Below are positions 8,403 through 22,567 of a DNA stretch of 64,000 nt, in pieces. Each line of letters opens with the position of its first letter. The stretch's first letter is position 1. A program made the position numbers and the translations under genes. The notes below the pieces were generated by a model. The model saw only the letters and a program-made list of their open reading frames with translations. It was not told the origin of the DNA and ran no database searches. Location: assembly GCF_030384885.1 (NCBI RefSeq), contig NZ_CP128613.1. One strand, 5' to 3'. The DNA comes from Escherichia coli. GTDB lineage: Bacteria; Pseudomonadota; Gammaproteobacteria; Enterobacterales; Enterobacteriaceae.

Positions 8403-8414
8403 GTTAACGTTAAC
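8403..8414. promoter_or_regulatory. Palindrome GTTAACGTTAAC, copy 1 (candidate LacI-family/CscR operator)
   Basis: Perfect 12-bp palindrome with central CG in cscA-cscK divergent region. Confidence 0.4.
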
Positions 8415-18629: not shown

Positions 18630-20773
18630 TGGAAATGGCATCAGCTTTTACTCTTAATGTTCGTCTGGACAACATTGCAGTCATCACCATCGACGTTCCC
18701 GGTGAGAAAATGAATACCCTGAAGGCGGAGTTTGCCTCGCAGGTGCGCACCATTATTAAGCAACTTCGCGAAAACAAAGAATTACGTGGAGTTGTATTTA
18801 TCTCAGCGAAACCGGACAACTTTATCGCCGGAGCAGACATCAACATGATCGGCAACTGCAAAACGGCGCAAGAAGCGGAAGAGCTGGCGCGGCAGGGGCA
18901 ACAGTTAATGGCGGAGATTCATGCTCTGCCTGTTCCGGTTATCGCGGCTATTCATGGCGCTTGCCTGGGGGGCGGGCTGGAACTGGCACTGGCGTGTCAT
19001 GGCCGCGTCTGCAGTGACGATCCTAAAACGGTGCTTGGCTTGCCGGAAGTTCAGCTTGGATTATTGCCAGGTTCAGGCGGCACCCAGCGTTTACCGCGCC
19101 TGATAGGTGTCAGCACAGCATTAGAGATGATCCTCACTGGAAAACAACTTCGGGCGAAACAGGCATTAAAGCTGGGGCTGGTGGATGACGTCGTTCCGCA
19201 ATCCATTTTACTGGAATCCGCCGTTGAGTTGGCAAAGCATGATCGACTATCTTCCCGCCCGCTACCTGTACGCGAGCGCATTCTGGCGGGGCCGCTAGGT
19301 CGTGCACTGTTGTTCAAAATGGTCGGCAAGAAAACAGAGCAGAAAACTCAGGGGAACTATCCGGCGACAAAACGCATTCTTGAAGTCATCGAAACCGGAT
19401 TAGCGCAAGGCACCAGCAGCGGCTATGACGCGGAAGCCCGTGCCTTTGGTGAACTGGCGATGACACCACAATCGCAGGCTCTGCGTAGTATCTTTTTTGC
19501 CAGTACCGAAGTGAAGAAAGATCCGGGCAGTGATGCTCCGCCTGCGCCGTTAAATAGCGTAGGGATTTTAGGCGGTGGCTTGATGGGGGGCGGTATTGCT
19601 TATGTTACTGCTTGTAAAGCGGGCTTGCCGGTCAGAATTAAAGATATCAACCCGCAGGGCATAAATCATGCATTGAAGTACAGCTGGGATCAGTTGGAGG
19701 GCAAAGTGCGCCGCCGACATCTCAAAGCCAGCGAACGTGACAAACAGCTGGCATTAATTTCGGGAACAACGGATTATCGCGGCTTTGCCCATCGTGACTT
19801 AATTATTGAAGCAGTGTTTGAAAATCTCGAATTAAAACAAAAGATGGTGGCGGAAGTAGAGGGAAATTGCGCCACTCATACCATCTTCGCTTCGAATACG
19901 TCATCTTTACCAATTAGTGATATTGCCGCTCACGCCTCGCGGCCGGAGCAGGTTATCGGTCTTCATTTCTTCAGCCCGGTAGAAAAAATGCCGCTGGTGG
20001 AGATCATTCCCCATGCGGGGACATCGGCGCAAACCATCGCTACAACGGTAAAACTGGCGAAAAAACAGGGAAAAACGCCAATTGTTGTGCGTGACAAAGC
20101 CGGGTTTTATGTCAATCGCATTTTAGCGCCTTACATCAATGAAGCTATCCGCATGTTGACTGAAGGTGAACGGGTTGAGCATATCGATGCCGCACTGGTC
20201 AAGTTTGGTTTTCCGGTGGGACCAATCCAACTTTTGGATGAGGTAGGAATCGATACCGGGACTAAAATTATTCCTGTACTGGAAGCCGCTTATGGAGAAC
20301 GTTTTAGCGCGCCTGCAAATGTTGTTTCTTCAATTTTGAATGACGATCGCAAAGGCAGAAAAAATGGTCGGGGTTTCTATCTTTATGGGCCGAAAGGGCG
20401 TAAAAGCAAAAAACAGGTCGATCCTGCTATTTATCCGCTGATTGGCGCGCAAGGGCAGGGGCGACTCTCCGCACCGCAGGTTGCTGAACGGTGTGTGATG
20501 ATGATGCTGAATGAAGCTGTACGTTGTCTGGACGAGCAGGTTATCCGTAGCGTGCGTGACGGGGATATCGGCGCGGTATTTGGAATTGGGTTTCCGCCGT
20601 TTCTCGGTGGCCCATTTCGCTATATCGACGCTCTCGGTGCGGCAGAAGTGGTTGCAATAATGCAACGTCTGACCGCGCGGTACGGTTCTCGTTTTACCCC
20701 TTGCGATCGTTTAGTTGAGATGAGCGAGCGTGGGGAAAGTTTTTGGAAAACAACTGCAACTGACCTGCAATAA
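18629..20773 (+). CDS. fadJ: Fatty-acid oxidation complex alpha subunit FadJ (enoyl-CoA hydratase / 3-hydroxyacyl-CoA dehydrogenase)
   Basis: 714 aa from [11 protein letters not shown]; ATG overlaps fadI stop (TAATG); ORF-track start 18581 is an upstream extension. Confidence 0.95.
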
Positions 20774-20909
20774 GAAGGTCAAAGTTATATGAATCCGCGC
20801 TGAATGGCGGAGTGTTGGTCAAAATGTAAACGCATATTGACTATACTTACGCCATTGAGGTAAAAAACAGCGTTTCATTCGGTGAATGGATAAGGCACAA
20901 TGCCGGCCA

Positions 20910-20946
20910 CCGTCGTGTTTCTCTGGTTTCAGATGAAACACGACGG
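20910..20946. other. Perfect 12-bp-stem hairpin (CCGTCGTGTTTC / GAAACACGACGG, 13-nt loop) about 30 bp upstream of sixA
   Basis: Seen directly; no U-run; function unknown (5'-UTR structure or protein site). Confidence 0.4.
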
Positions 20947-20975
20947 GCGAATCTGGTTAACAAAAGCGGTGCAAT

Positions 20976-21461
20976 ATGCAAGTTTTTATCATGCGTCACG
21001 GCGACGCAGCCCTCGATGCCGCCAGTGATTCGGTTCGTCCTCTGACCACTAATGGTTGTGACGAATCTCGCCTGATGGCGAACTGGCTGAAAGGTCAAAA
21101 AGTGGAAATCGAACGTGTTCTGGTGAGCCCGTTCCTGCGAGCCGAGCAAACACTGGAAGAAGTGGCGGATTGTATGGACCTGCCTTCCAGTGTAGAAGTT
21201 CTGCCTGAGCTAACGCCCTGTGGCGATGTTGGTCTGGTCAGTGCGTATCTCCAGGCACTGACCAACGAAGGTGTCGAGTCGGTACTGGTTATCTCCCACT
21301 TACCATTAGTCGGGTATCTGGTTGCCGAGTTATGTCCGGGCGAAACGCCGCCTATGTTTACCACTTCAGCGATTGCCAGCGTAACACTTGATCAAAGTGG
21401 AAACGGCCAATTCAACTGGCAGATGAGCCCGTGTAATCTGAAGATGGCAAAAGCAATTTAA
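20976..21461 (+). CDS. sixA: Phosphohistidine phosphatase SixA
   Basis: 161 aa, RHG motif at N-terminus. Confidence 0.93.
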   Translation: MQVFIMRHGDAALDAASDSVRPLTTNGCDESRLMANWLKGQKVEIERVLVSPFLRAEQTLEEVADCMDLPSSVEVLPELTPCGDVGLVSAYLQALTNEGVESVLVISHLPLVGYLVAELCPGETPPMFTTSAIASVTLDQSGNGQFNWQMSPCNLKMAKAI

Positions 21462-21470
21462 AAGCTCATA

Positions 21471-21508
21471 TGCCCGGTTGCGTACGCGTATACCGGGCAA
21501 ATTTTTTC
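21471..21508 (+). terminator. Rho-independent terminator after sixA
   Basis: GCCCGGT..ACCGGGC stem followed by AAATTTTTTC. Confidence 0.6.
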
Positions 21509-22006
21509 TGTCCTAATTGTGATCATATTTTACATATCACGAATTTTATTATCTTTCTTGTTATTGAAACTGGTAATAACACAGTGGAATAATGGTTTTG
21601 TATCTTGAATATAAATTAATTAATTTAATCAAGAATGAATCTTAGCAATAAATAATGCAAAATCATTATAAATTCTTTTAGTGGTTTTTATATCCAATTC
21701 ATTCATATCGGTTATGAAGTTTTTCTTTTTTTTGATGGCGCGCATGTATTTTTATTGAAAATCGAGAGAGATATTCTGGTTGTGTATTGATTAATTAAAT
21801 CTACATAAAGTCTTTAAGTATTACTACATTGCTTATTTTTAAAGATAAGACCAACATAACGACACACCAGAGAATATCTGTTTACATTCTATGATTATTT
21901 GGGACATATGATGTTCAATGGTTAACTAAAAGTGTCAGACATAATATATACAATAATATTATGTCAGTTGCTTGTATTATACATTTTAATGATTTAAGGA
22001 CAAATA

Positions 22007-22567
22007 ATGAGTAAGTTTGCCAAAACAGCCATTGCTGCCGCAATGGTGATGGGCGCAGTTGTCTCCACGTCAGCATTTGCTGCAGGCAACAACGGTACTG
22101 CACGTTTCTATGGCACCATTGAAGACTCTCCGTGCTCTATCGTTCCAGACGATCACAAACTGGAAGTGGATTTAGGCAACATTGGTGCAGAAGCACTCAA
22201 AAACAACGGGACTACCACGCCGAAAGACTTTCAGATTCGTTTACAGGACTGCGTATTTGATACCCAAACGAACATGGAAACGACATTCACCGGTAACGTT
22301 TCTACGGGAAACGAGAATTACTACACCATTTTTAATACCGATACAGGTGCTGCGTTTAACAATGTAAGCCTGGCGATTGGTGATAAGCAAGGTACTTCCT
22401 ATAAAAGCGGTGCTGGTATTAAACAGCCGATCGTAAATGACTCAGTAACCAATAAAGGCAAACCTAAACAGACGCTGAACTTCAAAGCCTGGTTAGTTGG
22501 TGCGGCTGGTACGCCTGACCTGGGTGGTTTTGAAGCAAATACCACCTTCCAGATTACCTATCTCTAA
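22007..22567 (+). CDS. yfcV: Fimbrial major subunit (Yfc chaperone-usher fimbriae)
   Basis: 186 aa, signal peptide, fimbrial-subunit C-terminal beta-strand ..TFQITYL. Confidence 0.85.
   Translation: MSKFAKTAIAAAMVMGAVVSTSAFAAGNNGTARFYGTIEDSPCSIVPDDHKLEVDLGNIGAEALKNNGTTTPKDFQIRLQDCVFDTQTNMETTFTGNVSTGNENYYTIFNTDTGAAFNNVSLAIGDKQGTSYKSGAGIKQPIVNDSVTNKGKPKQTLNFKAWLVGAAGTPDLGGFEANTTFQITYL

Follow-up and report, generated by a model that had tools for sequence, protein, structure and literature searches.

What does a perfect hairpin do between two genes when no run of U follows it? The question arises in a 64,000-nucleotide stretch of Escherichia coli DNA (contig NZ_CP128613.1 of RefSeq assembly GCF_030384885.1; the whole stretch is called the window here), in which a 12-bp stem stands in the spacer between fadJ and sixA. 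SixA, a phosphohistidine phosphatase, removes the phosphate from NPr, of the nitrogen phosphotransferase system, and from Ndk. That the hairpin, named H3 below, is a sense-strand RNA hairpin in the 5′ untranslated region (UTR) of sixA, where it sets the 3′ end of an abundant leader RNA, is the much better supported part of our account; most likely, the hairpin acts there as a leaky stop signal, previously undescribed.

The element is bounded as follows.

20908..20949, + strand: H3, the reported hairpin, with a perfect stem (20910-21/20935-46), an inner helix of 4 bp, a GUUU loop, a bulged U and a closing pair.

Its arms, CCGTCGTGTTTC (20910-20921) and GAAACACGACGG (20935-20946), are 12 nt each and 100% complementary across a 13-nt loop, as an earlier note on this DNA had claimed for 20910-20946. 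Inside the loop, four extra pairs, UCUG/CAGA (20922-25/20930-33), carry a GUUU tetraloop and leave U 20934 bulged, and an outer pair, C20908-G20949, closes the structure. A 57-nt context of H3 folds at −28.0 kcal/mol (z = −4.8), with 0 of 200 shuffles folding as well, and the variable segment as it occurs in the window has 12 + 4 bp (−25.8 kcal/mol) with its lowest three pairs all G-C. H3 has, in other words, the stable stem-loop with a G+C-rich base that is looked for in a terminator. Counting perfect hairpins with stems of 12 bp or more and loops of 3-60 nt, the window has eight against a mean of 0.17 in 200 shuffles, so a hairpin of the H3 type is not expected by chance. The other seven lie at 8403, 13394, 15092, 28480, 37308, 54977 and 60650; that at 15092-15126 has the sequence found at the fadL 3′ end published for K-12, 2462694. 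A repetitive extragenic palindromic (REP) element or bacterial interspersed mosaic element (BIME) was considered for H3 and rejected: the arm has no second copy in the window, H3 occupies a single place in each of 5,425 E. coli genomes, and a covariance model of the leader, run on the window, matched the sixA locus and no other.

By the RefSeq annotation, from which the gene names are taken, the fadJ stop codon is at 20771-20773 and the sixA ATG at 20976, which puts the end of the H3 stem 29 nt 5′ of the ATG and its beginning 136 nt 3′ of the fadJ stop, close to the 30 and 140 bp estimated in the earlier note. The window itself is 100% identical to E. coli strain 2013C-4282. The K-12 spacer has the same length, 202 nt, and no annotated feature inside. 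To place published K-12 data on the window, positions were converted as window = 20976 + (2456812 − K-12 position). Two features locate the start of the transcript.

20872..20873, + strand: sixA transcription start sites, converted from SMRT-Cappable-seq K-12 positions.
20837..20866, + strand: sixA sigma70-type promoter, with −35 TTGACT (20837-42), an 18-nt spacer and −10 TAAAAA (20861-66).

In the SMRT-Cappable-seq tables b2340 (sixA) forms an operon by itself, and its transcripts begin on the reverse strand at 2456916 and 2456915 (Yan et al., 2018, PMC6131387, supplementary file 4). Since the converted start site precedes the stem by 38 nt, H3 lies within the 103/104-nt 5′ UTR of sixA. Both promoter hexamers show no or almost no variation across 79 orthologous spacers, and the −10 TAAAAA ends 7 nt before the mapped start site; a strict consensus scan misses this promoter because position 6 of the −10 is not T. 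A sigmaS-type −10, CTATACTTA at 20841-49, was set aside: its predicted start is at about 20854, and the mapped 20872/20873 fits TTGACT-18-TAAAAA instead. Sites for sigma54, sigma32, sigma28, CRP, FNR, ArcA and FadR, compared by eye with their consensus sequences, did not fit in the invariant blocks of the spacer.

The other end of the RNA lies just behind H3, in the following element.

20950..20958, + strand: tail AAUCUGGUU, read as a degenerate U-tract, with K-12 RNA 3′ ends at 20953 and 20955.

In the Term-seq tables for K-12, a 3′ end at 2456835 in M63 medium (68,010 reads) corresponds to window 20953, and one at 2456833 in LB at an optical density (OD) of 2.0 (39,893 reads) to window 20955 (Adams et al., 2021, PMC7815308, supplementary files 1 and 3). 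Called in M63 and LB OD 2.0 and not in LB OD 0.4, both are classed as 'orphan, upstream ORF' for sixA, where ORF stands for open reading frame; because sixA is absent from the main text of that paper, the leader element was neither named nor tested there (PMC7815308). In K-12, the two ends fall 7 and 9 nt past the perfect stem. The usual release window of intrinsic terminators covers 7-9 nt after the stem. Together with the start site, the 3′ ends define a leader RNA of 81-84 nt that lies wholly upstream of the ATG at 20976 on the same strand, and the minimum-energy fold predicted for it has three hairpins, H1 (20874-90), H2 (20894-904) and H3. The absence of a U-run, reported in the earlier note, holds in the window, where the tail is AAUCUGGUU and a terminator scan raised no flag at H3. 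Its remark that H3 is not an obvious terminator stands in that respect only; as a dismissal it was too quick, given K-12 3′ ends 7-9 nt past the stem and a true U-tract in distant orthologues.

Those orthologues form a series. The tail is AUUCUGGUU in most genera of Enterobacteriaceae, GUCUUUGGUU in Cedecea, UUAUUUGGUU in locus L094, UAUUUUUGUU in Rahnella (L090) and UUAUUUUUUU in L091, and in these four distant cases it is each time followed by the conserved UUAACAAAA(G/A)CGGUGCA. More distant orthologues were reached via protein representatives, and the covariance model finds them as well: a Cedecea-like locus (L089) at 85 bits, L091 at 44 bits and Rahnella L090 at 37.5 bits. At the corresponding site of L090 and L091 a simple terminator scan does raise a flag, and an uninterrupted U-tract directly after the stem, which the window lacks at H3, occurs only in these two distant loci. 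The E. coli tail thus appears, on comparison of these tails, to be a decayed U-tract, the decay having apparently taken place within one family. UUAAC is the most conserved part of the tail, Rahnella and L091 included. Two further observations concern this region. A 7-nt direct repeat, TCTGGTT, occurs in the H3 loop (20922-20928) and in the tail with the RNA 3′ ends (20952-20958), in Escherichia only; and the leaders of L090 (478-706, Rahnella) and L094 carry an insertion of about 130 nt, with a degenerate first copy of a 'hairpin + GTTAA...ATG' module followed by an intact second copy with a U-tract.

How far the hairpin itself is conserved was examined in 80 sixA loci, one genome per species, across Enterobacteriaceae; sampling is thin between this family and Rahnella. 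All 80 keep the fadJ-sixA synteny and a spacer of about 200 nt, which falls into three parts: an almost invariant block of about 75 nt with the promoter and the leader through ...GGCACAATGCC(C)GGCCA, a middle segment of 33-56 nt that is unalignable between genera, and an invariant block of 29 nt, TG(A/C)TTCTGGTTAACAAAAGCGGTGCAATATG. The unalignable segment is nonetheless a single hairpin, closed by CA...UG, in 75 of 75 distinct sequences (median z −3.2; 96% below −2), with stems of 10-22 pairs (mean 17.3) and a base helix that is mostly C-G, A-U, Y-G, C-G. In a MAFFT alignment, 84.6% of cells are paired at the nine outer pairs, seven of which have changes on both sides, against 27-43% for the whole structure with sliding partners; the covariation score was reached by 0 of 500 shuffles, although such statistics overstate independence because the orthologues are related by descent. 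An alignment fitted with the covariance model (81 sequences), which leans towards structure, has double-sided changes in nine of nine pairs. A second hairpin of the spacer, at 20803-57, served as an internal control and is not conserved (median z about 0 over 69 orthologues). The earlier note had let its regulatory option hang on conservation of the stem and on where transcripts begin: with the structure kept in all 75 orthologues and the published start site (20872/20873) upstream of the stem, an RNA structure in the 5′ UTR is supported.

Within E. coli, variation in the spacer is confined almost entirely to the stem. The window and K-12 spacers differ at 7 of 202 positions, and six of the seven form three fully compensatory swaps of stem pairs (T-A to C-G, T-A to G-C and C-G to G-C); in fadJ, the same comparison gives 154 synonymous and 36 non-synonymous codon differences in 715 codons. 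The stem therefore evolves at about the local synonymous rate with its pairing kept, and elsewhere the spacer hardly changes. A faster than local rate for the stem is not supported, since its 25% divergence between window and K-12 is comparable to the share of changed synonymous codons locally (154/715 in fadJ). Among 5,425 complete E. coli genomes, the window allele is present exactly in 18 and with one change in 3, about 5,400 have the K-12 type, and intermediates between the two number 0. The one-change variants on both backgrounds have the identical C-to-T change at window 20944, by which a G-C pair becomes a G-U pair, and other Escherichia species have further combinations at the same four stem positions. 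Two alleles in one species, three clean compensatory swaps apart and with no intermediate, make this a case suited to teaching. Around the spacer, fadJ and sixA differ from K-12 by about 10% of nucleotides (window 17288-22288) and collinearity is lost past about 21400; the fimbrial genes downstream of sixA differ between window and K-12, and this haplotype is found in about 20 of the 5,425 complete genomes.

The pairing also has a strand. In 71 of 75 orthologues the variable segment folds better on the sixA-sense strand (mean −18.9 vs. −13.3 kcal/mol; Wilcoxon p = 2e-13), and there are 177 G-U pairs on the sense strand vs. 31 on the opposite strand. Both the strand bias and the G-U pairs argue against a DNA palindrome, an operator or an antisense RNA. 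The palindromic operator that had been offered as an option from the sequence is abandoned on these grounds: its half-sites would lie in hypervariable sequence, unalignable between genera, and the pairing uses G-U pairs of the sixA-sense strand only.

The reading that we favour, tentatively and at somewhat less than even confidence, is that H3 is the stem of a leaky, U-poor attenuator of the terminator type in the sixA leader. RNA polymerase would start at the sigma70-type promoter (20872/20873) and make a short invariant leader and then H3; a fraction of transcripts would stop 7-9 nt past the stem in the U-rich tail AAUCUGGUU, giving a stable leader RNA of about 81-84 nt, and the remaining ones would read through into the invariant ribosome-binding region and sixA. 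We infer that the ends at 20953/20955 arise by termination and so lower or regulate the output of SixA. Under such an arrangement the stem would drift at about the neutral rate through compensatory changes, with its flanks fixed, because only its shape matters. Several points weigh against this. Only four of the nine tail nucleotides in the window are U, and the terminator scan raises no flag there; the K-12 stem is AU-rich. Trimming by a 3′-to-5′ exonuclease also leaves ends a few nucleotides past a stable hairpin, and neither Term-seq nor the sequence by itself separates the two; terminator and Rho scores were published for LB OD 0.4 only, with none for the 20953/20955 ends (PMC7815308). The in vivo evidence is all from K-12 rather than the window strain, in three conditions and from supplementary tables. 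No alternative (antiterminator) pairing with covariation support was found, which makes regulated attenuation a matter of interpretation. The invariance of the tail, finally, could equally reflect a site of the RNase E type (GG↓UUAAC, the arrow marking the cut) or docking of the ribosome.

The leader and the region behind it contain three further elements that bear on how H3 might work; SD denotes Shine-Dalgarno.

20874..20890, + strand: H1, a small 5′-proximal hairpin, UUCAUUC / GAAUGGA with a 3-nt loop, in the predicted minimum-energy fold.
20892..20904, + strand: H2, GGCA-CAA-UGCC (20894-20904), over an SD-like AAGG (20892-95) and a conserved AUG (20900-02).
20959..20978, + strand: sixA translation initiation region AACAAAAGCGGUGCAAUAUG, with an SD-like GGUG (20968-71) and the AUG (20976-78).

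H1 is 96-98% paired across orthologues and lost in Buttiauxella and Atlantibacter. H2 is invariant in 81 sequences, as is AGG-N5-AUG-CC; the latter is kept in Rahnella and L091, and the H2 core AGGCA[CA]AAUGCCCG both in Rahnella and in an orthologue with 57% identity in SixA. Because their positions are invariant or change on one side only, H1 and H2 are without covariation evidence. In Escherichia, Citrobacter and Salmonella the H1 loop reads GGT, whereas Enterobacter has ACC (20876-20888 compared with L019 and its relatives), and the H1 sequences TTCGGTGAA and TTCACCGAA are exact reverse complements, as a small hairpin-mediated inversion would give. A conserved upstream ORF or leader peptide from the ATG at 20900 was rejected: the frame has 4-71 codons with stops scattered from −73 to +148, and an indel, CCGG vs. 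CCCGG, shifts it after codon 2. One of the 5,425 genomes (L086, E. coli ET245) has a 5-nt deletion, TGCCG (20901-20905), that removes the 3′ arm of H2 and part of the AUG, and the AGG...AUG motif is absent from L093. A candidate antiterminator pairing between the 3′ arm of H1 and the 5′ arm of H3, in two registers, was not above shuffles and not consistently paired. RNAalifold proposed a long-range helix between CAGCGUUU (20868-75) and AAAGCGGUG (20963-71), which was set aside with all its columns invariant; it is possible only in transcripts from an upstream promoter, because one half precedes the sigma70 start site. Such a pairing would mask the sixA SD. Nearby, GGTAAAAAACAGCG (20859-20872) and GGTTAACAAAAGCG (20955-20968) are direct repeats, identical at 11 of 14 positions. 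The initiation region is invariant in 75 orthologues save three single substitutions and is kept in Rahnella and L091; with the first codons of sixA it is predicted to form a weak AU-rich hairpin. Neither an SD-sequestering hairpin nor an RNA thermometer fits H3, whose stem ends at 20946-49, leaving the SD-like GGUG at 20968-71 outside.

Transcription may also reach the leader from further upstream.

20756..20783, + strand: upstream sigmaE-type promoter over the fadJ stop codon, with −35 GCAACTG (20756-62), a 16-nt spacer and −10 TCAAA (20779-83).

This is the top sigmaE-like match in 20300-20976, and GAAACTG/GCAACTG-16-TCAAA is kept in nearly all genera. The prediction agrees with reports that list sixA as a member of the sigmaE regulon (PMC6282199; PMC4577112). 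Between this promoter and the sigma70-type promoter lies the long imperfect hairpin used above as a control (20803-20859, AATGGCGGAGTGTTGGTCAA...TTGACTATACTTACGCCATT), strong only in Escherichia and a few Citrobacter and on that account rejected as part of the conserved element of H3; its right arm includes the −35 hexamer of the sixA sigma70-type promoter. A K-12 Term-seq 3′ end at 2456929 (LB OD 0.4, intrinsic-terminator score 6.72) corresponds to window 20859, right behind it (PMC7815308). The 20803-57 hairpin probably ends fadIJ transcripts or those from the sigmaE promoter, and, taken with that promoter, might mark the ends of an RNA of about 70 nt driven by sigmaE.

Which other processes would leave RNA ends at the same place? 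The main rival, which takes up the RNase processing site offered in the earlier note and which we regard as possible though doubtful, is a roadblock to exonucleases: the transcript would be cut in the invariant single-stranded UGG↓UUAACAAAAG, in the manner of RNase E, or terminate downstream (by Rho, for example, on untranslated sixA), and would then be trimmed 3′-to-5′ as far as H3. What remains would be a stable RNA of about 82 nt from the leader, perhaps along with a sixA mRNA whose leader had been shortened by processing. In its favour, the ends lie 7-9 nt beyond a stable stem lacking a proper U-tract, UUAAC is better conserved than any other part of the tail, in Rahnella and L091 as well, and GG↓UUA fits RN↓WU, the preference of RNase E. 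The short RNA, with a predicted hairpin near each end (H1 and H3), would moreover be long-lived. Against it, U-richness of the tail, which a pure roadblock would not require, is seen in every orthologue and amounts to a true U-tract in the distant ones, and the published LB OD 0.5 list holds no significant Rho-termination region with coordinates starting 24568 or 24569. That same tail series goes unexplained if H3 is purely a structural module acting in cis on translation or stability, whether as an insulator of the leader from the ribosome-binding region, a standby platform or a substrate of RNase III, with the 3′ ends as by-products of decay. Stems of 10-22 pairs (mean 17.3) with free sequence would suit a reader of double strands that ignores sequence, or a spacer, and the coordinates place the stem base just outside the expected 30S footprint at the sixA start. 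RNase III acts on about two turns of double-stranded RNA and cuts inside the stem; its cuts would fall within H3, whereas the published 3′ ends lie outside, and sixA and RNase III were not found together in the literature searched. We consider a structure-only module improbable. At the level of DNA, H3 could serve a dimeric regulator as palindromic operator or cruciform, or else simply terminate the fadIJ operon. It is a perfect palindrome in E. coli, and most genera have no other strong hairpin between fadJ and H3, so that read-through transcripts could end there. An operator, however, is expected to keep the sequence of its half-sites, which here is unalignable between genera, and the pairing leans on G-U pairs of one strand only; the polymorphic changes from G-C to G-U are C-A mismatches on the other strand. 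As a fadIJ terminator H3 would be misplaced, because it lies downstream of the promoter and start site of sixA itself, and upstream transcripts in E. coli already end at 20859. Either form of a DNA-level element seems to us hardly credible.

Two proposals keep termination at H3 or build on it. As a refinement of the attenuator that we favour, a ribosome at the conserved SD-like AGG and AUG (20900), which stand 8-10 nt before the stem base, could cover the 5′ arm and block H3, so that read-through into sixA would track translation capacity as in pyrBI. AGG-N5-AUG-CC is invariant in 81 sequences and retained in Rahnella and L091, H2 would be placed to mask the start at AUG 20900, and stationary phase and minimal medium are the only conditions in which the 3′ ends were called. 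The reading frame speaks otherwise, with 4-71 codons and stops from −73 to +148; L093 does without the motif, one E. coli isolate has deleted TGCCG including part of the AUG, and H2 alone may account for the invariance. We see only a slim chance for control by a ribosome. More broadly, the whole sixA leader may be an undescribed riboregulator conserved across Enterobacterales, composed of an invariant 5′ part of about 38 nt (the AGGCA-NAA-UGCC hairpin with its SD-like sequence and AUG), the covarying hairpin and the UUAAC tail. Its invariant parts would be the binding site for a ribosome, a protein or a small molecule, and that binding would decide whether H3 forms and how much SixA the cell makes when starved or under envelope stress; instead, or as well, the released RNA of about 82 nt would act in trans, independently of Hfq. 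This larger proposal is unlikely.

The earlier note knew of no described element here, which agrees with our searches. Rfam 15 gave no relevant match with E up to 10 in window 19500-22500 and none with E up to 0.1 in 13 orthologous loci from other genera; a sub-threshold match to naRNA4, which is REP-derived, at 2106-2165 of L045 (Phytobacter massiliensis; 42.5 bits vs. a gathering threshold of 59.5) is downstream of sixA and unrelated to the leader. In the literature searched, no paper ties sixA to a leader RNA, RNase III, Hfq, ProQ or a Salmonella STnc RNA, the Hfq RIL-seq-derived and CLASH supplements examined have no entries for sixA, neither northern blots nor interactome data showing a discrete leader RNA turned up, and no account of the control of sixA expression was found beyond membership in the sigmaE regulon. 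The leader offers a concrete and testable control point for this gene, with flanks more conserved than the protein, a compensatory hairpin and mapped RNA ends, and it carries a caution for genome scans: a missing U-run does not exclude an element derived from a terminator.

Compared with known systems, H3 resembles the REP-type stem-loops that block exonucleases in its stability and in the RNA 3′ ends that lie a few nucleotides beyond it; unlike them it is single-copy and stands in a 5′ leader rather than in a 3′ or intercistronic region. With the cis-regulatory leaders in Rfam (riboswitches and ribosomal-protein leaders) the sixA leader shares ultra-conserved unpaired flanks, a covarying variable stem and a single conserved gene downstream, but covariation supports one helix only and no ligand or binding protein is indicated. 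It differs from attenuators built on an intrinsic terminator, such as the trp and pyrBI leaders, in its U-tract, which is interrupted (AAUCUGGUU or AUUCUGGUU) in E. coli and most Enterobacteriaceae and fails a simple scan, and in having neither a conserved leader peptide nor a supported antiterminator pairing. Like those attenuators, it has a stem-loop between promoter and ribosome-binding site, 3′ ends 7-9 nt past the stem, a stem whose sequence varies while its structure is kept, and a U-rich tail that is a true U-tract in distant orthologues. Finally, it resembles the short RNAs derived from 5′ UTRs by premature 3′ ends: the sixA 3′ ends are listed in the Term-seq tables that catalogue such ends in E. 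coli (PMC7815308), and a primary start site lies upstream on the same strand.

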